This document shows, piece by piece, positions 1 to 9,304 of a stretch of DNA of 9,304 bases (position 1 is the first letter of the stretch; every line of letters begins with the position of its first letter). The notes beneath the pieces are model-generated. The model was not told the origin of the DNA and searched no databases. It saw only the letters and a list, made by a program, of their open reading frames with translations. The translations under genes and the position numbers were made by a program. The DNA comes from a virus (lineage: Duplodnaviria; Heunggongvirae; Uroviricota; Caudoviricetes): the IMG/VR virus record IMGVR_UViG_2671180603_000009, positions 1 through 9,304 of that record, one strand, 5' to 3'.

Positions 1-131
1 GGAGTGTCCGTTAAACTCAGGCTACCTCATACAGTGGGTAAACTTGTTTATCGGTGCTCATTGTTTTTTAACCTCAACTCAGATTAAAATTACTGCGAGT
101 GATGAATAAATGTCCCAGGTTCTTCACTCAG

Positions 132-161
132 GCCTGCACAGTGTGCAGGCTTTCTTTTTTT
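132..161 (+). terminator. Rho-independent terminator-like hairpin followed by T-run
   Basis: Perfect 8-bp inverted repeat GCCTGCAC (132-139) / GTGCAGGC (143-150) with 3-nt loop, then tttcttttttt (151-161). T-run is on the plus strand, so it would stop rightward transcription running into the minus-strand gene that ends at 161. Confidence 0.5.
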
Positions 162-436
162 CAGATTTCACCTTTTAATTTCATTGCAATCAGAGTTGCC
201 AGAAATTCGGCTTTTTTTTCTGCGGGCAGATTCTTTCCTATGTGCACCAGACACATTTTTTTTACACCATCGTTAAGTGTTTTAACGTTGCCTGATGGAC
301 CGTCGATATCAACCACAGTGAATGGGGTTTCTTTATTTTCTGTCTTAATCACGTAGCCAATACGCTTTCCTTCCAGATTAACCTCGTGAACAATGTCATC
401 AGTAGTTACAACAGTGGCTTCATAACTGGTAATCAT
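161..436 (-). CDS. hypothetical prophage protein (91 aa)
   Basis: ORF track 161-484; start chosen at internal ATG 436 (MITSYEAT...) because it is preceded by AAGGAG at 6-7 nt spacing. No family recognised. Confidence 0.65.
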   Translation of the reverse strand: MITSYEATVVTTDDIVHEVNLEGKRIGYVIKTENKETPFTVVDIDGPSGNVKTLNDGVKKMCLVHIGKNLPAEKKAEFLATLIAMKLKGEI

Positions 437-469
437 GTTTTTCTCCTTAATTAAGGTTGAGCGAACCCC

Positions 470-483
470 TGCCATTGCTGGCA
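470..483 (-). other. conserved hairpin at cassette boundary (GCAA tetraloop on minus strand); second copy at 1281-1294
   Basis: TGCCA-ttgc-TGGCA on plus, i.e. UGCCA-GCAA-UGGCA on minus; identical sequence at 1281-1294 downstream of each small-peptide gene. No U-run follows, so not called a terminator. Confidence 0.35.
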
Positions 484-520
484 TATAAGAATGAAACCGG
501 ATATTTATTACGGAACTGTT

Positions 521-712
521 TTAAAGACCTGCCGGGATTTCGTTATTATCATGGTGAATAACTTTATCGACCGGATAACAGTCACCGGGAATTTTCTGTT
601 TCGCTGCGGCAGTCATACATTCTTTCATTGAGCTGTATACGCCAGTAACCATGTCAACCGGTTCACCGGAAACAAGAAAAACCGTCAGAACGAGTGCAAA
701 TACTGTATTCAT
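521..712 (-). CDS. small putative secreted peptide, 63 aa (cassette copy 1)
   Basis: ORF track 521-766; start taken at ATG 712 (MNTVFALVLTVFLVSG...), which gives a hydrophobic signal-peptide-like N-terminus and an ATGA overlap with the stop of the upstream ORF at 709; two conserved Cys in the mature part; paralog at 1332-1523. Confidence 0.55.
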   Translation of the reverse strand: MNTVFALVLTVFLVSGEPVDMVTGVYSSMKECMTAAAKQKIPGDCYPVDKVIHHDNNEIPAGL

Positions 713-897
713 TGTGCACATCCTTTTGGCATCAGACGTAAACGAGCCAGCATTGAAACAATGCATATTTTATTTAATAGCTCCCGTTCGTGTTTTCTCT
801 TGTTAATGGCATCTTCAGTAAATACAGGGTTACTGATAGTGACACCAATTTCAAAACAACCTTCAGACGTATTAACGTTTGGTAATAACGTCTCCAT
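709..897 (-). CDS. hypothetical 62-aa protein (cassette copy 1)
   Basis: ORF 709-897; ATG 897 preceded by GAGGA at 7 nt; stop overlaps start of the peptide gene (ATGA); ~90% identical paralog at 1520-1708. Confidence 0.5.
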   Translation of the reverse strand: METLLPNVNTSEGCFEIGVTISNPVFTEDAINKRKHERELLNKICIVSMLARLRLMPKGCAQ

Positions 898-907
898 TAT
901 TGCGTCC

Positions 908-1238
908 TCAACAATGAATTTTGAGTAATTGTTCCACAGTCATATTTTTAATTGCGCCCCGGTTAACAAGAGTCCATCCCTGTTTTTCCAGATAAAACCG
1001 GAAAGTCTCCAGGGGACAGACCAGTGCGCCATCAGGAACGGTTTCGGTGAATTCGACATTGCCGAATTTGTCGAAGTGAACAACCAGGGTGCGGCCATCG
1101 CCTGGAATTATTTTGTCAGTGGGTGGGGTGTTATTCTGGCGCAGTTCGGCCTCCATGCGATCGAACTCAGCAATGTAGGCTTCTTTGAATGCGGCGGNNN
1201 NNNNNNNNNNNGGCGGCGCAAATAAAGACTTTACTCAT
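908..1238 (-). CDS. standalone homolog of the C-terminal domain of the Rha-like protein, interrupted by N-run 1198-1211
   Basis: Translation 908-1197 (...AAFKEAYIAEFDRMEAELRQNNTPP...LLKIHC) is ~92% identical to the C-terminal ~95 aa of the 1719-2276 protein. A candidate start ATG at 1238 (MSKVFICAA, GAGG upstream) lies beyond the N-run; frame across the Ns cannot be verified. Confidence 0.45.
1198..1211. other. run of 14 N (assembly gap or masked bases) inside a coding region
   Basis: Literal n characters; flanked on both sides by GCGGCGG-like sequence. Confidence 0.95.
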
Positions 1239-1331
1239 TTTGTTTTAACCTCATTACAGATTTAAGGGTGAACAAATCCCTGCCATTGCTGGCATATAAA
1301 AATGAAACCGGATATTTATTACGTGGCTGCT

Positions 1332-1523
1332 TTAAAGACCTGCCGGGACTTCTTTATTATCCTGGTGAATGATTTTATCAACCGGATAACAGTTACCGGG
1401 AATTTTCTGTTCAGCTGCAGCAGCCACGCATTCTTTCATGGAGTTGTATACTCCGGTAACCAGTTCAGCTGGTTCGCCCGTATTAAGAATAACGGTCAGA
1501 ACGAGTGCAAATGCTGTATTCAT
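1332..1523 (-). CDS. small putative secreted peptide, 63 aa (cassette copy 2)
   Basis: Start ATG 1523 (MNTAFALVLTVILNTG...), ATGA overlap with upstream ORF; ~75% aa identity to the 521-712 product. Confidence 0.55.
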   Translation of the reverse strand: MNTAFALVLTVILNTGEPAELVTGVYNSMKECVAAAAEQKIPGNCYPVDKIIHQDNKEVPAGL

Positions 1524-1708
1524 CGCCAGCATCCTTTTTGCATCAGACGCAAACGAGCCAGCATTGAAACAATGCATATTTTATTTAATGACTCCCGTTC
1601 GTGTTTTCTCTTGTTAATGGCATCTTCAGTAAATACCGTGTTACTGATAGTGACACCAATTTCAAAACAACCTTCAGTCGTATTAACGTTTGGTAATAAC
1701 GTTTCCAT
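1520..1708 (-). CDS. hypothetical 62-aa protein (cassette copy 2)
   Basis: ATG 1708 preceded by GAGGA (overlapping the rha stop codon); paralog of 709-897. Confidence 0.5.
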   Translation of the reverse strand: METLLPNVNTTEGCFEIGVTISNTVFTEDAINKRKHERESLNKICIVSMLARLRLMQKGCWR

Positions 1709-1718
1709 TATCGCGTCC

Positions 1719-2276
1719 TCAACAATGAATTTTGAGTAATTGCTCTACAGTCATATTTTTAATTGCGCCCCGGTTAACAAGAGTCCATCCCTGTTCTTCC
1801 AGATAAAACCGGAAAGTCTCCATGGTACAGACCCGTGCGCCATCAGGAACGGTTTCGGTGAATCTGATGTTGCCGCGTTCGTCGAAGTGAACAACCAGGG
1901 TGCGGCCATCGCCTGGAATTATTTTGTCAGTGGGTGGGGTGTTATTCTGGCGCAGTTCGGCCTCCATGCGATCGAACTCAGCAATGTAGGCTTCTTTAAA
2001 TGCAGCGGCTTTTTTGCCAGTGAATCCCATCACCAGGAAAACGAAGCCGTTTTTGGTGATTTGGTACATCGGGCGTTTTTCGCCTTTGGCGTCAGTGTAG
2101 GTGACGTCCTCAAAATTGAGGGCGTTAAATTCAGGTGAGCATTCAGTATTTGCGATGGCACGTAACACATTGTCGTGACGCTTGCCAAAGAACTCTGCGA
2201 TCGCAATAGACGTAGTGACAGCGCGACCATTTTCGATGGTTACGTCAGGGTGAGAAAGGGCAGGGATAGTAGCCAT
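1719..2276 (-). CDS. rha: Rha-family phage regulatory protein (185 aa)
   Basis: Start ATG 2276-2274 preceded by GAGGA at 7 nt. Translation contains the Rha-family signature as I recall it (...IAEFFGKRHDNVLRAI...FVFLVMGFTGKKAAAFKEAYIAEFDRMEAEL). ORF track extends to 2573 but that upstream extension is not accepted as coding. Confidence 0.8.
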   Translation of the reverse strand: MATIPALSHPDVTIENGRAVTTSIAIAEFFGKRHDNVLRAIANTECSPEFNALNFEDVTYTDAKGEKRPMYQITKNGFVFLVMGFTGKKAAAFKEAYIAEFDRMEAELRQNNTPPTDKIIPGDGRTLVVHFDERGNIRFTETVPDGARVCTMETFRFYLEEQGWTLVNRGAIKNMTVEQLLKIHC

Positions 2277-2316
2277 GATGGCATCCTCGAGTGATAAGTT
2301 AATTAACTCACCACCG

Positions 2317-2729
2317 AGGTTTTCCACGACCATAAGGGTGGTGTGACGTACAGGGGTGGAAATACCGGTCACTCGAGAACCCGGCCAGTCTTGCGACTGC
2401 CCTGCACATCCCACCATAATTTGAATGGAGCTGTGCATTACGCATAAAAAAACCGCTTCAGCGCGGCTATGCGCTCGAGTAACGTTCGGGTTTCCACGCC
2501 CGGCACCCGTTTTATAAGGTGCAGGTGCACTATAATTCCACCCGTTCTGGTTTTCAATAGCTACATTCAACATTTTCTCTTTCCTTTCATCACCGAAGTG
2601 AACTTTGTTGATGCGGTGCCTGGTGCCTCCAGGTGACGTTAACCAGTTAACAATTAACGCCGGATACAGGGAAACCCATAACCACCCGATACGGGGGAAC
2701 TAATCGCTTTTTAACTGTGCCGCGTGCGC
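2317..2729. repeat. copy 1 of a ~413-nt tandemly duplicated non-coding element immediately upstream of rha
   Basis: Aligns base for base with 2731-3143 (about 32 differences, ~92% identity); hairpin-rich; see findings. Confidence 0.9.
2446..2469 (-). terminator. terminator-like hairpin plus U7 within element copy 1
   Basis: Plus strand aaaaaaa (2446-2452) followed by ACCGC-ttcag-(c)GCGG; on the minus strand this is a GC hairpin followed by seven U. Stem is short (4-5 bp). Confidence 0.35.
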
Positions 2730-2730
2730 N

Positions 2731-3143
2731 AGGTTTTCCACGACCATAAGGGTGGTGAGACGTACAGGGGTGGAAATACCGGTCATCACGGAACCCGGCC
2801 AGTCTTGCGACTGCCCCGCACGCCCCACCATAATTTGAATGTGGCTGTGCATTACGCATAAAAAAACCGCCTGAGCGCGGTTATGCGCCGTGAATGACTT
2901 CGGGGTAGCAATCCCGGCACCCGTTTTATGAGGTGCAGGTGCACTATAATTCCACCCGTTCTGGTTTTCAATAGCTACATTCAACATTTTCTCTCACCTT
3001 TCATCACCGAAGTGAATTTTGTTGATGCGGTGCCTGGTGCCTCCAGGTGACGTTAACCAGTTAACAATTAACGCCGGATACAGGGAAACCCATAACCACC
3101 CGATACGGGGGAACTAATCGCTTTTTAACTGTGCCGCGTGCGC
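2731..3143. repeat. copy 2 of the ~413-nt tandemly duplicated element
   Basis: See 2317-2729; a single n at 2730 sits exactly at the junction of the two copies. Confidence 0.9.
2860..2883 (-). terminator. terminator-like hairpin plus U7 within element copy 2
   Basis: Plus strand aaaaaaa (2860-2866) then ACCGC-ctgag-(c)GCGGT; minus strand reads as a hairpin followed by U7. Confidence 0.35.
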
Positions 3144-3177
3144 TGAGCCGCATTCACCGCATCACAAAATTCACTTT

Positions 3178-3218
3178 AAAAAGGGCGGACATCAGCCAGC
3201 AATGAAACTGATGCCGCC
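3178..3218 (-). terminator. candidate Rho-independent terminator on the minus strand
   Basis: GGCGGACATCAG (3184-3195) pairs with CTGATGCCGCC (3208-3218), 11 bp with one bulge and a 12-nt loop; on the minus strand the hairpin is followed by CCCUUUUUAAA (plus a-run 3178-3182). Confidence 0.4.
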
Positions 3219-3418
3219 AAAGGTACCAATCAACATGGAGTGTTGTGGCGTGGTTGTCACTTAAGCGTATGGTCAACCTGACAACCCGGTGTCCTCAACG
3301 GGGAAGGAATAACTCCGCCATACTTACCGCCGCGTCATTTCGCGTTGTGTGCCTGCTTTTAACCACGTCAGGCGAGGTGGTATCCTTCTTATCCCGAATA
3401 ACCAAGAAGGAAATCTAT

Positions 3419-3619
3419 ATGACTAAAGAAGAATTTGTCTCTTATATTTTTGATAAAACGGTTGAAATGTATGCCGCTACTTACGGGTCCTGTAATCCTC
3501 TGAATAAACCAGAGGGAAAAGATGATTTCGACAAAATTTACCGCTTCTTGGAGGACCGCTATATCAAAAGCTTAGAGGACGCAGGGATCAAATCCCCAGT
3601 GAAGTCACCATTGTCCTGA
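3419..3619 (+). CDS. hypothetical small protein (66 aa), the only plus-strand gene in the left arm
   Basis: ATG 3419 preceded by AAGGAA at ~7 nt; the ORF track start at 3245 uses an alternative start with no RBS and is rejected; 3' end overlaps the convergent gene 3588-3965 by 32 bp. Confidence 0.5.
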   Translation: MTKEEFVSYIFDKTVEMYAATYGSCNPLNKPEGKDDFDKIYRFLEDRYIKSLEDAGIKSPVKSPLS

Positions 3620-3965
3620 GAACTTGCAGAACGTCATGATCATAACTTCCATCCAAACCGCGACGGCGAATTGCTTCTCGTATTACCGGAAGCAGTTCGC
3701 TGGAAATCTCGGTGCATATTTCACCTGATAATACGCTTGGCTCAAGTGAGAATATTGGTGAACTTACGGTCTTGGTCTCGACAGTTTCAGAGTCAGTGCC
3801 AACATTATAAAGCTCAACGAAAGCGGTCTTGATTTTCCGGGCCAGATCTTTTGCTGGCTCGCTTGCAATATCTTTCCCGATTTCTCGCAGCACAGAATGC
3901 AATGTATGAGCTGCTGTTTTCTGTACATCAGACGGTAAATCTTTAAATTCCATCGTCAGCCTCAT
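3588..3965 (-). CDS. hypothetical protein (125 aa; 121 aa if started at ATG 3953)
   Basis: ATG 3965 overlaps the stop of the upstream gene (TGATG coupling); alternative ATG at 3953 has GAGG 6 nt upstream. No family recognised. Confidence 0.6.
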   Translation of the reverse strand: MRLTMEFKDLPSDVQKTAAHTLHSVLREIGKDIASEPAKDLARKIKTAFVELYNVGTDSETVETKTVSSPIFSLEPSVLSGEICTEISSELLPVIREAIRRRGLDGSYDHDVLQVLRTMVTSLGI

Positions 3966-4117
3966 CAGTCAGTGTTTCTGGCTAACCAGCAACGCGCGCC
4001 AGATTCGGTTTTAAACGTTTTGCTTTTGGTATACGTCATGGCGGTAAACGTTCCATCCTGGTTAGGGAACACGCCGCACACCAGAGATTCGTTGTTGCCA
4101 AGATCGATAGTATCCAT
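3965..4117 (-). CDS. hypothetical small protein (50 aa; 68 aa if started at 4171)
   Basis: ORF track 3965-4171; ATG 4117 (MDTIDLG...) has GAGGT 5 nt upstream whereas ATG 4171 has no obvious RBS. First gene downstream of the operator-controlled leftward promoter. Confidence 0.45.
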   Translation of the reverse strand: MDTIDLGNNESLVCGVFPNQDGTFTAMTYTKSKTFKTESGARCWLARNTD

Positions 4118-4296
4118 GCTGACCTCATTTCCCCTTAACGCCGGGGTGGCGGAACAAAAAACCTGCTGCATAGTTAAAGATTGAACCCTGCCGTCATGTT
4201 CTTACGCCTCGGGCTGGCTACTTAACCCCTGACCACTGTCTGGTAACTCGAAGTATTGCCCTGCATTCTGTGGGGCGGGGTGGGTTGACGCCTGAA

Positions 4297-4338
4297 AAAA
4301 TAGCATCATTATTTTTTGATGTAAATAGCATCGCTATT
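4297..4338 (-). promoter_or_regulatory. leftward early promoter (PL-like) overlapped by two repressor-operator-like inverted repeats
   Basis: Minus strand reads TTTACA (plus 4320-4325), 17-bp spacer, TATTTT (plus 4297-4302). Inverted repeats AATAG-N5-(C/T)TATT at 4299-4313 and 4324-4338, centres 25 bp apart, overlap the -10 and -35; same motif recurs at 5434-5473. Confidence 0.5.
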
Positions 4339-4350
4339 GTTTTTGTTGGG

Positions 4351-4377
4351 GCAAGAAAAAACCACCCTAAGGTGGTT
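4351..4377 (-). terminator. Rho-independent terminator downstream of the toxin gene
   Basis: AACCACC-ctaa-GGTGGTT (4360-4377) preceded on plus by an A-run (4356-4361); on the minus strand this is a 7-bp stem followed by UUUUUUC, 17 nt after the stop at 4394. Confidence 0.6.
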
Positions 4378-4393
4378 CTGTCGGCGGGAATAA

Positions 4394-4684
4394 TTAACTG
4401 TTTTTGCCTGGATACTGTCTTCGAGAATGCACAATATTTACTACTTCTATGCTTGATGCTGTTACTCGGTAAAGGATGATGTAGTTAGGATGAGTTACAA
4501 TTTCACGAAGACCAAGAACTCGCTCGCTTGGAGGATACAGGTAAGGATGCTCTGTGAGCGGCAAAACGGATGTTTCAATTCGAATTTTCATTCTGCGTGC
4601 TGCCGCGGGATTTTCTTTAGCTATGTAGGCTACGATCTGGCGCAAATCATCACGAGCAGATGGTAGCCATAAAACGGGTAACAT
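4394..4684 (-). CDS. parE: ParE/RelE-superfamily toxin (96 aa)
   Basis: Translation MLPVLWLPSARDDLRQIVAYI...HPYLYPP...LREIVTHPNYIILYRV...VVNIVHSRRQYP matches my recollection of ParE-type toxins; start overlaps the stop of the upstream antitoxin gene (TAATG). Confidence 0.8.
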   Translation of the reverse strand: MLPVLWLPSARDDLRQIVAYIAKENPAAARRMKIRIETSVLPLTEHPYLYPPSERVLGLREIVTHPNYIILYRVTASSIEVVNIVHSRRQYPGKNS

Positions 4685-4878
4685 TATTCACCTCTGTGAG
4701 TTGCAGCAGCAATTTGGGCAATAATTTGTTCCATTTCCGCCATTACCTCATCATGCGGAATCGCCGGGCGGGGATCCGCGAGGCTTGCTGCTACTTTGGC
4801 CCGCAGCCATTCGTTGTAACTATTTTCTTGCTCAACTGTCTCAAATTCTGAAACCATTGGGGAAAGGACTGTACTCAT
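4684..4878 (-). CDS. small antitoxin (64 aa), likely PaaA/ParD-like partner of the ParE toxin
   Basis: Small acidic protein directly upstream of and translationally coupled to the toxin gene; AGGAG-like RBS about 12 nt upstream of ATG 4878. Resemblance to the PaaA2 antitoxin of E. coli O157 is from memory and unverified. Confidence 0.65.
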   Translation of the reverse strand: MSTVLSPMVSEFETVEQENSYNEWLRAKVAASLADPRPAIPHDEVMAEMEQIIAQIAAATHRGE

Positions 4879-4897
4879 TTTACATATCTCCTCTGAT

Positions 4898-5398
4898 TTA
4901 GGCGCGACGGCCTTTTTGTGCAGCTAACCACCGCGCAACCGTACGATCCATTGATTCTTTTTTATCTTTCATCTCCTGAAGCATGTGTTCTTGATCTTCT
5001 TTCGGAAAAGCTCTGAACGTATGGATTAAATCTCGTTCCATCGGCTCTACGGCAAACGGTAGTTCATCCTCTGTTTGTTCTGTGTCTGCTGGTAATGCGA
5101 CTATGTTATCTTGCTGTGGTTCTCGACAATACATCCTTGCAATTTGCAGCAAATCTACCATGTCTGGCCTGATTGACTCAGGGGGAACTTTCAGTAAGCC
5201 AGCAAACTTTAGAACAGCCTCAAGGTTTAGTGGGGTTTGACCATTTAGGTAGTGACTTACCGCCCCTTGTGTTGAAAACCCCATAATTTCCGCCGCACGT
5301 TCCTGAGTCAATCCCAACTGAGATTTCTTTGCCATCCAGATTTCTTTCAGTCTTCTGGCGGCGTTGAGGTCGGTGTCTGACAATGATTTTCTTTTCAT
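4898..5398 (-). CDS. HTH (XRE-family) transcriptional repressor, RacR/PaaR-like, 166 aa
   Basis: ORF track 4898-5428 (GTG start); ATG 5398 (MKRKSLSDT...) preferred. HTH-like segment LGLTQERAAEIMGFSTQGAVSHYLNGQ; acidic C-terminus with no recognisable S24 peptidase (LexA-like) motif; divergent from the Cro-like gene and 19 nt upstream of the antitoxin gene. Confidence 0.75.
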   Translation of the reverse strand: MKRKSLSDTDLNAARRLKEIWMAKKSQLGLTQERAAEIMGFSTQGAVSHYLNGQTPLNLEAVLKFAGLLKVPPESIRPDMVDLLQIARMYCREPQQDNIVALPADTEQTEDELPFAVEPMERDLIHTFRAFPKEDQEHMLQEMKDKKESMDRTVARWLAAQKGRRA

Positions 5399-5405
5399 AC
5401 ATCCA

Positions 5406-5475
5406 ATTCTAATAAGATTGCTAATCACTTTGAAATAGCATCACTATTTACTTTTAAAAATAACAGTGCTATTAA
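5406..5475. promoter_or_regulatory. divergent promoter/operator region (OR-like)
   Basis: Inverted repeats AATAG-catca-CTATT (5434-5448) and AATAA-cagtg-CTATT (5459-5473), centres 25 bp apart, plus weaker AATAA-gattg-CTAAT (5411-5425). Plus-strand TTTACT (5447-5452), 17 bp, TATTAA (5470-5475) upstream of the Cro-like gene; minus-strand TTTCAA/18 bp/TAGAAT (plus 5406-5411) just upstream of the repressor ATG. Confidence 0.5.
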
Positions 5476-5509
5476 TTATGCATTGGTAACACATCACATA
5501 GGGCGGATT

Positions 5510-5773
5510 ATGAATCTTGGAGAATATTTGCATCATTTTCATATAACCCAGAGTTCATTTGCTGAGATTGTTGGCGCATCCCAAGGGATGGTCAGCCACG
5601 TTATAACGGGGCGTGCAAAACTTACAGGAGAAAAAATATTACGTTGGTGTGAAGCAACGGGATGGGTGGTGACCCCACATGAGATTGACAGTAAAACCTA
5701 CCCCAACCCAACTGACGGCTTGCCTGCTGAGTTTCAGGCTAACACACAACCATCGGCGGGGGTTGATTCATGA
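5510..5773 (+). CDS. Cro-like / YdaS-family HTH protein (87 aa)
   Basis: ATG 5510 (MNLGEYL...); ORF track start 5483 is a TTG. HTH-like TQSSFAEIVGASQGMVSHVITGRAK; first rightward gene divergent from the repressor; stop overlaps next gene (ATGA at 5770-5773). Confidence 0.7.
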   Translation: MNLGEYLHHFHITQSSFAEIVGASQGMVSHVITGRAKLTGEKILRWCEATGWVVTPHEIDSKTYPNPTDGLPAEFQANTQPSAGVDS

Positions 5774-6195
5774 AAATCAAGCATGAACACATCCGCATGG
5801 CGATGAAAGCCTGGGCGCATCCGGACGGTGAAAAAGTTCCGGCAGCTGAAATAACCAGGGTTTATTTCGAACTGGGAATGACGTTTCCGGTTCTGCATAA
5901 CGACAGCAAGCACAACACGCTTTATCTCAACACCCAAAAGATTTTCCGTTGGCTGGATAAAGACACCCCTGACGCTGTTGAAAAAATTCAGGCGTTGTTA
6001 CCTGCGATCGAAAGGGCAATGCCACCTCCGCTGGTGGCTCGAATGCGCAGCCACAGTTCAGCTTATTTTCGGGAACTGGTGGAGACGCATGAACGACTGG
6101 TGAGAGACGCTGATGATTTTGTCGCAGTGGCAATCGCCGGTTTCAATCAGATGAACCGTGGTGGCCCGGCAGGAAATGCTGTGGCAGTACATTGA
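5770..6195 (+). CDS. YdaT-like protein (141 aa)
   Basis: N-terminus MKIKHEHI... and position directly after the Cro-like gene match my recollection of Rac prophage YdaT-family proteins; translationally coupled to the upstream gene. Confidence 0.7.
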   Translation: MKIKHEHIRMAMKAWAHPDGEKVPAAEITRVYFELGMTFPVLHNDSKHNTLYLNTQKIFRWLDKDTPDAVEKIQALLPAIERAMPPPLVARMRSHSSAYFRELVETHERLVRDADDFVAVAIAGFNQMNRGGPAGNAVAVH

Positions 6196-6266
6196 CTGAC
6201 AATAGCCATATCGAATCGCTCCCGGCAACTCGTGAGTAAAAAGATTCGGTATCAGAAGAGGTGAGT

Positions 6267-7331
6267 ATGGCTAACGCCTGGCTCAGATTATGGCATGACA
6301 TGCCAAATGACCCTAAGTGGCGAACAATTGCCAGGGTGTCAGGGCAGCCAATTGCAACAGTGATGGCAGTGTATATCCACCTCCTGGTGAGCGCGTCACG
6401 AAATGTCACGCGAGGTCACATTGATGTCACGACAGAAGATTTGGCAAGTGCGCTCGACGTGACAGAAGAGGTAATTGATTCAATTTTGCAGACGATGCAG
6501 GGGCGGGTACTTGATGGTGATTTAATCACTGGATGGGAAAAACGCCAGGTGCTTAAAGAGGACAACGGCAATATTTCGCAAACCGCAAAATCTCCTGCAG
6601 AGCGCAAGAGGGCGCAGCGAGAGAGGGAAAGAAAGCGGGAACAAAATGGCGATTGTCACGGCGCGTCACGAAATGTCACGCACATGTCACGACGAGTCAC
6701 GACAGATACAGATAAAGATACAGATAAAGAAGATCAAAACACTATGGTCCATGGCGTAAAAAACGCCACGAACCAGGCAGGGGATGTTCAGACCGTCAAT
6801 CCTGGTCAGCCAGCAGGCTCGACACCGGAAGCCGATTCAGCGTATGCGCTGAAAGCCGATTCGGGCGCTGTGCAGCAGGTGATGACCGCAAGGCCGGAGC
6901 AATCACTCCAACTGCAGCAGCCTGAAGCCGATTCCGCCATTCAGCGGGAAGCCGATCGGGTAGCCCCGGAAAACACCGGGCAGCCTGTGGGACGAGTGGA
7001 TTATCCGGATGTGTTCGAACAGGTCTGGCGGGAATACCCGTTGCGTGCCGGGGCAAACCCGAAGAAATCCGCATTCAGTGCCTGGAAGGCCAGATTGCGC
7101 GAGGGGGTGCCACCAGAGACCATGCTGGATGGTGTGAGGCGTTACGCGAGATACCTGGCGGCGACCGGGAAAGCGGGAACGGAATTTGTTCAGCGAGCGA
7201 CGACGTTTTTTGGGCCGGACCGGAATTTTGAAAACCCCTGGTTGCTCCCGGTAAGCGGCACGAACAACCAGCGTTGTGTGAATCATATTTCTGAACCGGA
7301 TACCGAAATTCCGCCGGGATTCAGGGGGTGA
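6267..7331 (+). CDS. phage replication initiator / replisome organizer (O-like, YdaU-type), 354 aa
   Basis: ATG 6267 preceded by AGAGGTGA; N-terminus MANAWLRLWHDMPNDPKWRTIA... is typical of prophage replication proteins as I recall them; iteron-like repeats lie inside the gene; followed 6 nt later by a DnaC-like gene. Confidence 0.8.
   Translation: MANAWLRLWHDMPNDPKWRTIARVSGQPIATVMAVYIHLLVSASRNVTRGHIDVTTEDLASALDVTEEVIDSILQTMQGRVLDGDLITGWEKRQVLKEDNGNISQTAKSPAERKRAQRERERKREQNGDCHGASRNVTHMSRRVTTDTDKDTDKEDQNTMVHGVKNATNQAGDVQTVNPGQPAGSTPEADSAYALKADSGAVQQVMTARPEQSLQLQQPEADSAIQREADRVAPENTGQPVGRVDYPDVFEQVWREYPLRAGANPKKSAFSAWKARLREGVPPETMLDGVRRYARYLAATGKAGTEFVQRATTFFGPDRNFENPWLLPVSGTNNQRCVNHISEPDTEIPPGFRG
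6388..6430. repeat. iteron cluster 1 (four GTCAC(G/A) repeats at ~10-bp spacing)
   Basis: GTCACG at 6392, 6402, 6423 and GTCACA at 6412; the 21-mer gcgcgtcacgaaatgtcacgc (6388-6408) is repeated exactly at 6661-6681. Confidence 0.6.
6654..6728. repeat. iteron cluster 2 (five GTCACG repeats) plus AT-rich 12-bp tandem repeat; candidate replication origin
   Basis: GTCACG at 6655, 6665, 6675, 6686, 6696 (spacing 10/10/11/10), then gatacagataaa x2 (6705-6728). Arrangement resembles phage lambda, whose origin lies inside gene O. Confidence 0.55.
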
Positions 7332-7337
7332 TGTGGC

Positions 7338-8084
7338 ATGAAAAACATTGCGGCAGCCGGGGTTCTTGAACGTATTCACAGACTTGCACCACAGGGGGCG
7401 GTTCCACCGTACCGGACGGTGGAGGAGTGGCGGGAATGGCAACTTGCTGAAGGACGAAAACGCAGCGAGGAGATTAACCGCCAGAATCGCCAGTTGCGGG
7501 TGGAAAAAATCCTGAATCGTTCGGGCATCCAGCCTCTGCACAGCAAATGCTCGTTTGCGAATTATCAGGTGCAGAACGACGGGCAAAAATACGCGCTGAG
7601 CCAGGCCAAATCCATAGCTGACGAACTGATGACCGGGTGCACGAATTTTGTGTTCAGCGGTAAAACCGGCACCGGGAAAAATCACCTTGCAGCGGCGATG
7701 GGTAACTGGCTGATGGCGAAGGGGCGCAGCGTGATTATCGTCACCGTGTCTGATGTCATGAGCGTGTTGCATGACAGCTACGACAACGGCAAATCCGGTG
7801 AAAAATTTTTACAGGAGCTTTGCGGGGTTGATTTGCTGGTCCTGGATGAAATAGGCATTCAGCGGGAGACGAAAAACGAGCAGGTGGTATTGCACCAGAT
7901 AATTGATCGCCGGACAGCATCACTGTGCAGTGTCGGGATGTTAACAAACCTGAATCATGCCGCAATGAGCACGCTTCTTGGTGAGAGGATTATGGACCGC
8001 ATGACCATGAACGGTTGTCGGTGGGTGACGTTTAACTGGGATAGCTGGCGTTCAAATGTCAGCTTTCCGGGAGTTGTGAAGTAA
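7338..8084 (+). CDS. DnaC/IstB-like AAA+ helicase loader (248 aa)
   Basis: Walker A GKTGTGKNHLAAA and Walker B LLVLDEIG visible in the translation; start 6 nt after the initiator stop. Confidence 0.85.
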   Translation: MKNIAAAGVLERIHRLAPQGAVPPYRTVEEWREWQLAEGRKRSEEINRQNRQLRVEKILNRSGIQPLHSKCSFANYQVQNDGQKYALSQAKSIADELMTGCTNFVFSGKTGTGKNHLAAAMGNWLMAKGRSVIIVTVSDVMSVLHDSYDNGKSGEKFLQELCGVDLLVLDEIGIQRETKNEQVVLHQIIDRRTASLCSVGMLTNLNHAAMSTLLGERIMDRMTMNGCRWVTFNWDSWRSNVSFPGVVK

Positions 8085-8105
8085 TTTTTGTTGGAGGATG
8101 TTTTA

Positions 8106-8831
8106 ATGGAAACTGTATTTGACGCACTGAAAGCACTGAAAAGAGCCTCTTCACATGTGGTGGCGTCCCGCCTTGGAATCAGCCGTGAAGATGCGGTCAA
8201 CGAACTGTGGAAACTGAAGCGCCGTGGTGAAGCGGATAACAAGGGTTCGATGTGGTGGCTGATTCAGGCTGGTGAAAGTGAACCAGTGTCACCGGTACCG
8301 AAAGTGACAGCGCAAATGCTGACTGAGGCGATTGAACAACATGGCCCACAAACGGCGGATGAGCTGGCACTGATGTTCGGGATTACCTCCCGCCGGGCGA
8401 ATTCATCGCTGGCCATGGCAATCAGCAAAGGGCGTCTGATTCGCGTGAATCAGGGCGGTAAATTTCGGTACTGCATACCGGGCGCTGATTTACCGGCAGA
8501 GCCGAAAGCCGCATCCATAGCGGAAACGGATGGTAAAGTCTTTCCTCAGCCAGCAGGTGTTGCGTTACCGGTACAGGAAGCTGCAACACAGGAAGAAATT
8601 AAAACAGAAACTGTGGCGGACATTGTGCAGTCGTTGCCATCGTTCACCGAAACGCAAGCGGATGACCTGGTTTTACCATCGCTGCATATGGCAAACCGCG
8701 AACTGCGTCGGGCGAAAAGTCATGTCCAGAAGTGGGAGCGTGTCTGCGCCGCGTTGCGGGAGCTGAACAAGCACCGGGATATTGTTCGACAGATTGTCGA
8801 TTCCTCCGGTCGTATTGTGTCGGAAAAGTGA
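8106..8831 (+). CDS. hypothetical prophage protein with two winged-helix-like repeats (241 aa)
   Basis: ATG 8106 preceded by GGAGGA; ORF track start 8088 is TTG. Two similar N-terminal segments ([10 protein letters not shown]...; [10 protein letters not shown]...), acidic linker, coiled-coil-like C-terminus. Family not verified. Confidence 0.6.
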
Positions 8832-8846
8832 TTGCCGGGGGCGCTT

Positions 8847-9269
8847 ATGGCAAAAGTATTTACACAGGAAGAGCGGGAAAAAATTAAGGGGCAGGTTGTT
8901 GAACTCGTACGCCAGAGTGGGCGCGAGACGTTACGACAACTGGAAGCTAAAACCGGGGCGACAAGATATTTAATAAGCGTTCTCGCCAGAGAGCTGGTTG
9001 CCAGTGGGGATGTATACAACTCTGGCTACGGGTTATTCCCGTCTGAACAGGCTCGTAAGGACTGGCAAAACGCCCGCAAAAAACTCTCGAGGGCAAAGCT
9101 GAAGAAACCATCTGTGGTTGATCCGGACCTTATCTGGTCATTACCAGACGGAGAAATACGCCGCTACGACAGACATCAGAACATAATCTGTCGCGAGTGC
9201 CGGAAGAGTGAAGTTATGCAGCGTGTACCGGCTTTCTATCAGGGTGATTTTCAGGAGGCGGTACTGTGA
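8847..9269 (+). CDS. hypothetical protein (140 aa)
   Basis: ATG 8847 preceded by GGGGG at ~6 nt; ORF track start 8832 is TTG; basic, possibly DNA-binding; no family recognised. Confidence 0.55.
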   Translation: MAKVFTQEEREKIKGQVVELVRQSGRETLRQLEAKTGATRYLISVLARELVASGDVYNSGYGLFPSEQARKDWQNARKKLSRAKLKKPSVVDPDLIWSLPDGEIRRYDRHQNIICRECRKSEVMQRVPAFYQGDFQEAVL

Positions 9270-9304
9270 GTGAAATTAGCTATCAGGCTTCAATTACCGC
9301 TGGC

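Follow-up and report, generated by a model that had tools for sequence, protein, structure and literature searches.

A candidate replication origin within the initiator gene of an E. coli lambdoid prophage

The DNA analysed here, referred to as the window, comprises the 9,304 nucleotides at positions 1 to 9,304 of IMG/VR virus record IMGVR_UViG_2671180603_000009, which come from an E. coli lambdoid prophage. Region 6391-6775, inside the gene for the prophage's own 354-residue initiator protein, is interpreted from its sequence as the vegetative replication origin of this prophage (estimated probability about 0.8). The region contains two clusters of short, helically spaced GTCAC(G/A) words (iterons), an inverted copy between them, an A-rich run and a hairpin. 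An origin within the initiator gene is a known arrangement (lambda, SPP1), and the candidate belongs to an unstudied but widespread initiator family. What it would add to the known pattern is a second iteron array, written in three reading frames within the coding sequence of the N-terminal domain and co-varying with the other. An iteron-type origin within the initiator gene had been proposed in a first-pass annotation of the window, and this is now supported by the reading frames of the words, the frozen synonymous sites within them, their covariation, the AT-rich run and a layout shared with phage SPP1.

The features of the initiator gene are as follows.

6267..7331, plus strand: initiator gene of 'phage replisome organizer' type, 354 residues (open reading frame and translation, phrog_3729, names given by the Prokaryotic Genome Annotation Pipeline, PGAP)
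6391..6411 and 6661-6681, plus strand: exact 21-bp repeat GCGCGTCACGAAATGTCACGC, either copy covering two iterons
6395..6431, plus strand: iteron cluster 1, four GTCAC(G/A) words at 6395, 6405, 6415 (GTCACA) and 6426, in steps of 10, 10 and 11 bp
6458..6463, minus strand: inverted iteron, CGTGAC on the plus strand, within the D-V-T codons of 'ALDVTEE'
6655..6701, plus strand: iteron cluster 2, five GTCACG words at 6655, 6665, 6675, 6686 and 6696, in steps of 10, 10, 11 and 10 bp
6704..6745, plus strand: A-rich/AT-rich run, candidate DNA unwinding element, GATACAGATAAA twice and then GAAGATCAAAACACTAT, encoding DTDKDTDKEDQNT
6745..6775, no strand assigned: imperfect inverted repeat (hairpin) with 13-bp arms, TGGTCCATGGCGTAAAAAACGCCACGAACCA, directly 3' of the AT run
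7270..7328, plus strand: C-terminal tail QRCVNHISEPDTEIPPGFRG of about 25 residues, near-identical to the C-terminal end of E. coli DnaT (primosomal protein 1)

Phased words, AT run and hairpin

The total of GTCACR words in the window was ordinary (12, against 9.1 expected), but 10 of them fell in 6395-6701, all inside the initiator reading frame. Nine of these lie on the same strand within 320 bp. First-order Markov simulations of the window (1000 runs) averaged 2.3 words and never exceeded 4, and the base-composition expectation for the nine-word 320-bp stretch was 0.28. The two clusters with 10-11 bp spacing, reported in the first-pass annotation, were thus recovered on recounting, and such clustering was absent from all 1000 simulations. 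The exact 21-bp repeat also reported there is real and its second copy lies at 6661-6681, but the first copy is at 6391-6411, so that the earlier position (6388-6408) was off by 3 nt. The inverted copy at 6458-6463 and the hairpin at 6745-6775 had been absent from that annotation. No DnaA-box or integration host factor (IHF) consensus was found in 6250-6800, and promoter-like matches in the region were no more frequent than in shuffled sequence.

The repeats are also translated. Peptide ASRNVT was found twice in the initiator, in agreement with the double SRNVT described earlier, the DTDK peptide is repeated in the AT run, and protein-level conservation is seen for the motif NVTRGHxDVT. The words could on these grounds be a by-product of a repetitive, low-complexity protein (SRNVT..VT, DTDK) and chance, with no function at the DNA level. 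However, the words of cluster 1 span three reading frames, encoding S-R, V-T, G-H and V-T (GCG TCA CGx, GTC ACG, GGT CAC and GTC ACG). The first 480 nt of the gene were resampled with synonymous codons drawn from neighbouring genes, which for the same protein gave 1.7 words on average and no more than 7; nine words were reached in 0 of 5000 trials. The repeats are therefore not a consequence of the amino-acid sequence. Synonymous sites in homologous loci are frozen inside the words only, and the protein sequence of the linker around cluster 2 is not conserved, although the words are. The protein-repeat explanation, contradicted by the three frames, the resampling and the frozen synonymous sites, was rejected and is almost certainly wrong.

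The position of the clusters in the protein was examined using an AlphaFold2 model of the full initiator. Its overall confidence was low (mean predicted local distance difference test, pLDDT, of 53), with a usable N-terminal part (pLDDT 60-86 in residues 1-95). In the model, residues 1-95 or so form an N-terminal helical domain and residues 246-311 or so a C-terminal one, with a disordered linker between them (about 128-242). Cluster 1 encodes residues 43-55, which form the end of helix 29-45 and a low-pLDDT loop before helix 56-63, inside the N-terminal domain. Cluster 2 encodes residues 130-145 of the linker (pLDDT about 30-37) and, together with the AT run, residues 130-160, all disordered in the model. 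The earlier placement of the repeats between the N- and C-terminal regions consequently holds for cluster 2 and fails for cluster 1. Both clusters coincide with protein segments tolerant of sequence change, the one a low-confidence loop and the other a disordered linker.

The AT-rich 12-bp tandem repeat was found where it had been described, at 6705-6728, as two copies of GATACAGATAAA (6705-6716 and 6717-6728). No 40-mer of the gene is less stable than segment 6706-6745, at -43.2 kcal/mol against a gene mean of -57.7 (standard deviation 3.8; 3.8 standard deviations lower), and in the whole window this segment ranks third least stable. An AT run follows the last cluster-2 word in 48 of 49 homologous loci (the next 50 nt are AT-richer than the gene, mean excess +0.21). 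It mostly reads (C/T)AGATAAAGATAAAGA... or GATACAGATACA..., with GATAAA/GATACA hexamers. The hairpin beyond it has a DNA folding energy of -8.7 kcal/mol (z = -3.05) and resembles a terminator stem on the minus strand. In 32% of homologous loci the AT run was followed by a perfect stem of at least 7 bp, compared with 8% for background segments, and many of these loci have GC-rich hairpins with differing stem sequences at this place (L006, L012, L013, L022, L023 and L066, for example).

The GATACAGATAAA unit (peptide DTDK) behaves like a variable-number tandem repeat. Four alleles more than 97% identical, from E. coli, Shigella-type and phage sources, were compared, and the number of units was their sole difference in length: two in the window and stepwise more in L003 (3068-4138), L002 (1068-2174) and L001 (3068-4186). 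In a further allele (protein P0018, 302 residues) an in-frame deletion takes out most of cluster 2 and the AT run; judged from its sequence, this allele is presumably origin-dead. Such deletions and repeat-number changes, together with a family homology that breaks off precisely past the AT run, at the joint with differing C-terminal modules, would also be expected if the AT run and repeats were mainly a recombination junction for exchange of the N- and C-terminal halves, or slippage-prone DNA with no selected function. This leaves the phasing of the words, the frozen synonymous sites and the covariation of the two clusters unexplained, and recombination, as a side effect, is compatible with the origin reading. 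As the main explanation of the region it is quite improbable.

Conservation and word classes in homologous loci

A scan of one genome per species yielded 55 loci encoding relatives of the N-terminal domain. In 25 of these, from gamma- and beta-proteobacteria (Enterobacterales among them) with locus GC contents of 34-69%, GTCAC was present at +83, +93, +103 and +114 from a conserved PKWR codon. Loci of this class include E. albertii, Aquitalea, Entomomonas, Rahnella, Serratia, Bordetella, Pseudomonas, Acidovorax, Gilvimarinus, Castellaniella, Stenotrophomonas, Chromobacterium and Pseudothauera, among others. Cluster 2 contained 3-6 copies in 10-11 bp steps at about +320 to +450 (+300 to +410 for homologues overall), and the inverted copy (GTGAC) was kept at +147 in most of them. 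The comparison of iterons among homologous initiator genes, suggested earlier as a check, thus gave the same offsets in E. coli as in Bordetella, Pseudomonas and Acidovorax. Among isolated phages, pAEv1818 and phi1 also have these word offsets. The initiator gene of Pseudomonas phage phi1 (KT887557.1, Detrevirus, D3-like; L066 2501-3400) is unannotated and lies in a gap between annotated coding sequences; it carries the full iteron layout (+83, +93, +103, +114; +342 to +372).

Codon entropy was calculated in 22 diverged loci, using as reference equally conserved residues elsewhere in the N-terminal domain. It was 0.13 bit in the iteron cores and 1.50 outside (Mann-Whitney p = 1e-5). Codons TCA, GTC, ACG, GGT and CAC were fixed in the words even at locus GC contents of 60-69%. 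At the inverted copy, 18 of the 19 'ALDVT' loci had GTG as the Val codon, whose share in the rest of the domain was 24%. The sole exception, L027, belongs to a class with the word GTAACG, and its inverted copy, GTTAC, is the reverse complement of its own word. These sequence comparisons are direct evidence that purifying selection acts on the DNA words themselves. Clusters 1 and 2 are equally conserved. The distance from the last word of cluster 1 to the last word of cluster 2 is mostly 249, 258 or 267-270 nt and varies in multiples of 3 nt because in-frame insertions and deletions are needed; the word positions in homologous loci gave no sign of conserved helical phase between the two clusters.

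Homologues lacking GTCAC carry GTAACG (five loci) or CGAACG(C) (thirteen loci) at the same two places. Each locus has one word, shared by both of its clusters, and the loci accordingly form GTCACG, GTAACG and CGAACG classes. Different classes were found inside single host genera, such as Serratia, Pantoea and Pseudomonas, and the binding protein would therefore be encoded by the element. The N-terminal domain, the iterons and the AT run travel together, whereas the C-terminal domain and the downstream loader vary; most loci differ from the window in the C-terminal domain, the loader and the YdaT-like neighbour. As the only constant partner of the words, the N-terminal domain is likely, on this sequence comparison, to bind them.

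A different binder, either a PhoB-type host factor or another phage regulator (Cro, CII or YdaT-like), was also considered. PhoB-type sites are direct TGTCA repeats at 11 bp, a spacing of direct repeats that is typical of winged-helix response regulators. Several of the copies here read TGTCAC. Against this, loci from a single host genus differ in word class, which tracks the family of the N-terminal domain, most homologous loci have no YdaT-like neighbour, so that the N-terminal domain is the sole constant partner, and conservation extends across hosts from Entomomonas to Pseudothauera. The PhoB-like host factor was rejected on the ground that word class follows the N-terminal domain and not the host, and this group of explanations is very improbable.

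The initiator protein matched phrog_3729 ('replication initiation protein') with an E value of 3e-250, and near-identical genes carry the PGAP name 'phage replisome organizer'. Scans of the whole protein against Pfam and NCBIfam gave no usable domain assignment. The isolated N-terminal domain had a weak match to Pfam HTH_Crp_2, and the top Foldseek matches of the model, none of them significant, were mostly to winged-helix regulators (MarR/MepR, CRP, Rrf2 and ArsR). The N-terminal helical domain is a putative winged-helix domain. The DnaT DNA-binding domain PF17948 was not found in the initiator of the window, whose likeness to DnaT is confined to the last ~25 residues (matches to 6aep_A 72-96 and 9zbt_D 159-179); this full DnaT-like domain was found in other family alleles, P0054 and P0087. 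The QRCVNHISEPDTEIPPGFRG-type tail also ends YdaU of the Rac prophage and a P0044-type initiator, and a YdaV/DnaC-like gene follows all three. From this distribution the tail may be a portable docking motif for the helicase or its loader.

The P0044-type initiator (L062, E. coli contig DBJGDY010000009.1) has an unrelated N-terminal domain with the same C-terminal half and loader. Its gene carries two iteron clusters about 250 bp apart (2684-2720 and 2938-2976), with the word AAGGGGCT in 11-bp steps and an A-rich run afterwards. The bipartite in-gene arrangement is therefore not confined to one family of N-terminal domains.

Proposed mechanism and comparison with known origins

The origin reading implies the following course of events. 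After derepression, a rightward early transcript would be made, and from it the initiator. Transcripts entering the initiator gene presumably start from the cI/cro/cII-like module upstream. The N-terminal domain would bind the asymmetric GTCACG words head-to-tail, namely the four of cluster 1, the five of cluster 2 and the inverted copy between them; with one word per helical turn, all words would therefore lie on one face of the DNA. The initiator would oligomerise within the clusters, and possibly also between them across ~230 bp, thereby distorting the DNA and melting the adjoining A-rich GATACAGATAAA run (6704-6745). The C-terminal part, through its DnaT-like tail, would recruit the DnaC-like loader (7338-8084) with host DnaB, and the host replisome would take over after helicase delivery.

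A close architectural counterpart is the origin oriL of Bacillus phage SPP1. This origin lies in gene 38 and consists of iterons ('AB boxes') bound by G38P and an AT-rich unwinding element, and a 356-bp SPP1 region is sufficient for theta replication dependent on G38P, G39P and G40P in vitro (PMC5737612, PMC6316719). In the coding strand of gene 38, about five A-rich iterons (GAAACGACA/AAAAGACAC) were seen in ~11-bp steps, followed by AT-rich AACAATGAT three times. The order of N-terminal domain, iterons, AT-rich tandem repeats and C-terminal domain, with a helicase-loader gene next, is that of the window, and G38P, like the window initiator, has no AAA+ domain. The sequence similarity of G38P was not significant (best BLASTP E value 0.36), and the likeness is therefore architectural. 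G38P also has Pfam Phg_2220_C, which gave no match in the window protein, and no iteron cluster was seen in the part of the SPP1 gene that encodes the N-terminal domain. The hosts are Firmicutes in one case and Proteobacteria in the other, with G39P/G40P in place of a DnaC-like loader and host DnaB.

In lambda, the iterons, AT-rich region and palindrome lie inside O, in the part that encodes a flexible linker, the palindrome being past the AT-rich region as the hairpin is here. Lambda O is modular, its N-terminal half binding the origin and its C-terminal half contacting the loader. Lambda has a single cluster of four iterons, each 18-19 bp long and with an internal dyad, whereas the window has asymmetric cores of 6-7 bp, one per helical turn, in two clusters with one inverted copy. 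The gene order of cI, cro, cII-like gene, initiator and loader is common to both (P22 gene 18, phi80 and 82 were grouped with lambda). However, the loader in the window is DnaC-like and not lambda P, and Phage_rep_O, the lambda O family, was not detected in the initiator even at E values up to 10. The position of ori-lambda within O is also described in two papers (PMC6022878, PMC3349717). Papers that classify the non-lambda replication regions of Shiga-toxin (Stx) phages state that nothing is known of how those regions replicate. The proteins of the Eru1-3 modules are different from the one described here.

The Rac prophage of E. coli K-12 (ydaS-ydaT-ydaU-ydaV) resembles the window in gene order, in its YdaV/DnaC-like loader and in the DnaT-like tail of its initiator. 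Its ydaU was rejected as the same gene, since BLASTP similarity is limited to that tail. The N-terminal domain of YdaU (DUF1376) is unrelated, and its gene has repeats of another word and spacing (33 bp). These are AGATGTTCAAA-like direct repeats in steps of 33, 33 and 12 bp (L064 3472-3563; NC_000913.3 ~1421471-1421562), followed by an GATACAGATAAAGAT run and ATCCCCCCC twice. Rac has been reported to possess an active origin, oriJ, and the ydaU repeat region is, by its sequence, a candidate for its position; no statement of the position of oriJ relative to ydaU was found in the literature search.

Origins of theta plasmids (P1, F, RK2 and pPS10), Staphylococcus aureus pathogenicity islands (SaPI) and phage-inducible chromosomal islands (PICI) have direct repeats to which a winged-helix initiator binds head-to-tail, an AT-rich unwinding element alongside and at times a second iteron cluster. 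Their iterons are usually 17-22 bp long and intergenic, in contrast to the short words inside coding sequence described here.

Several points weigh against the region being an origin of this kind. A core of 6 bp is short for an iteron. Foldseek searches of the initiator model against the PDB returned nothing with E < 1. Pfam Phage_rep_org_N (PF09681) matched the isolated N-terminal domain over profile positions 1-119 of 121, but with 16.2 bits (threshold 23.3; E value 0.011), and in scans of whole proteins it was found in 0 of 15 family members at E 0.1. The loci share descent, and part of the positional conservation is therefore inheritance, though synonymous sites outside the words have been randomised. 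A literature search returned no description of this origin and no experiment on this initiator family; binding, melting and origin firing are therefore inferred, as are the identity of the binder, the site of melting, the recruitment of the helicase and the division of labour between the clusters. Finally, lambda and SPP1 oriL need no second cluster ~230 bp away, and cluster 1 may therefore do something else, such as control.

This last point leads to the explanation that the repeats are initiator-binding control sites (autoregulation, roadblock, titration or handcuffing, as with plasmid incA/incC) and that the real origin is elsewhere; in a weaker form, only cluster 1 controls, and cluster 2 with the AT run is the origin. 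The clusters are indeed two and separate, one of them 270 bp from the AT run, and a single cluster suffices in lambda and SPP1 oriL. SPP1 moreover has a second G38P-binding site, oriR, 13 kb away, which has been proposed to stall forks (PMC6316719). Against control as the function, cluster 2 is always joined to an AT-rich run, which is the classic arrangement of iterons and unwinding element, and both clusters are equally conserved. The complete 46-kb genome of phage Tritos (see below) contains no other phased GTCAC cluster, which speaks against a second site at which these words would serve as an origin. The control explanation, in both forms, was accordingly considered unlikely, and an origin at 6391-6775 was retained as the preferred interpretation.

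How the two clusters would work together was considered separately. One array, in three frames within the coding sequence for the DNA-binding domain of the initiator itself, would physically couple site specificity to protein sequence in a bipartite origin. A change of word from GTCACG to GTAACG to CGAACG necessarily rewrites the loop at residues 43-55, from SRNVTRGHxDVT to SNATERGRTQN. The two arrays might be bridged into a loop needed for melting. A bipartite origin with this coupling is put forward as a doubtful proposal.

Prophage context and significance

The initiator gene sits in a lambdoid early-right module, with an immunity/regulation module (4898..6195) upstream. The neighbouring genes are as follows.

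4898-5428, minus strand: cI-like repressor, upstream immunity/regulation module
5483-5773, plus strand: Cro/YdaS-like gene, same module
5770-6195, plus strand: CII/YdaT-like gene, same module
7338..8084, plus strand: DnaC-like helicase loader gene, 248 residues, 7 nt 3' of the initiator gene
8088-8831, plus strand: DUF1627 gene, after the loader gene

The loader protein matched Pfam IstB_IS21 and Bac_DnaA, phrog_50 and, in NCBIfam, PRK12377 (500 bits) and the DnaC equivalog (300 bits). The gene order of the upstream module was also found in L001, L002 and phage Tritos. Of 5,426 complete E. coli genomes, 2,524 contained DNA matching 6200-7400, as did seven deposited E. coli phage genomes. Many of the E. 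coli genomes with the initiator module are Shiga-toxin strains. Pseudomonas, Aeromonas, Bordetella, Serratia and other hosts also have the module, both in their prophages and in their phages.

Escherichia phage Tritos (OV696610.1, 32105-33638; L003/L060) carries the same initiator and candidate origin with no DnaC-like gene downstream, the place after the initiator being occupied by a 140-residue hypothetical gene. In gene content (recE, pinR, dicB, dicF, ydfU, cspB/I and ybcV/W) this phage resembles a mosaic of three cryptic prophages of K-12, Rac, Qin and DLP12. Elsewhere in the window, 913-952 and 1724-1763 are near-identical AT-rich 40-mers, AATGAATTTTGAGTAATTG(T/C)TC(C/T)ACAGTCATATTTTTAAT, about 810 bp apart and among the least stable duplex segments; they point to duplication of a gene start, or of a promoter region, on the minus strand. 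Masked or unresolved bases are present at 1198-1211 (a run of 14 N) and 2730 (a single N).

The lambda/SPP1 rule that the origin lies inside the initiator gene is extended by the present candidate to another family, and nothing is overturned. With the candidate precisely delimited, replication of these prophages becomes directly testable, including by a synonymous knock-out design. The three words provide natural specificity classes for studies of initiator-iteron recognition and incompatibility. DNA-level constraints shape part of the protein sequence, which matters when the conservation of that protein is interpreted. If the bipartite, coupled arrangement is true and the loop at residues 43-55 contacts DNA, protein and site would switch specificity in one step; prophages could in this way rapidly acquire new replicon specificities that are compatible with one another.

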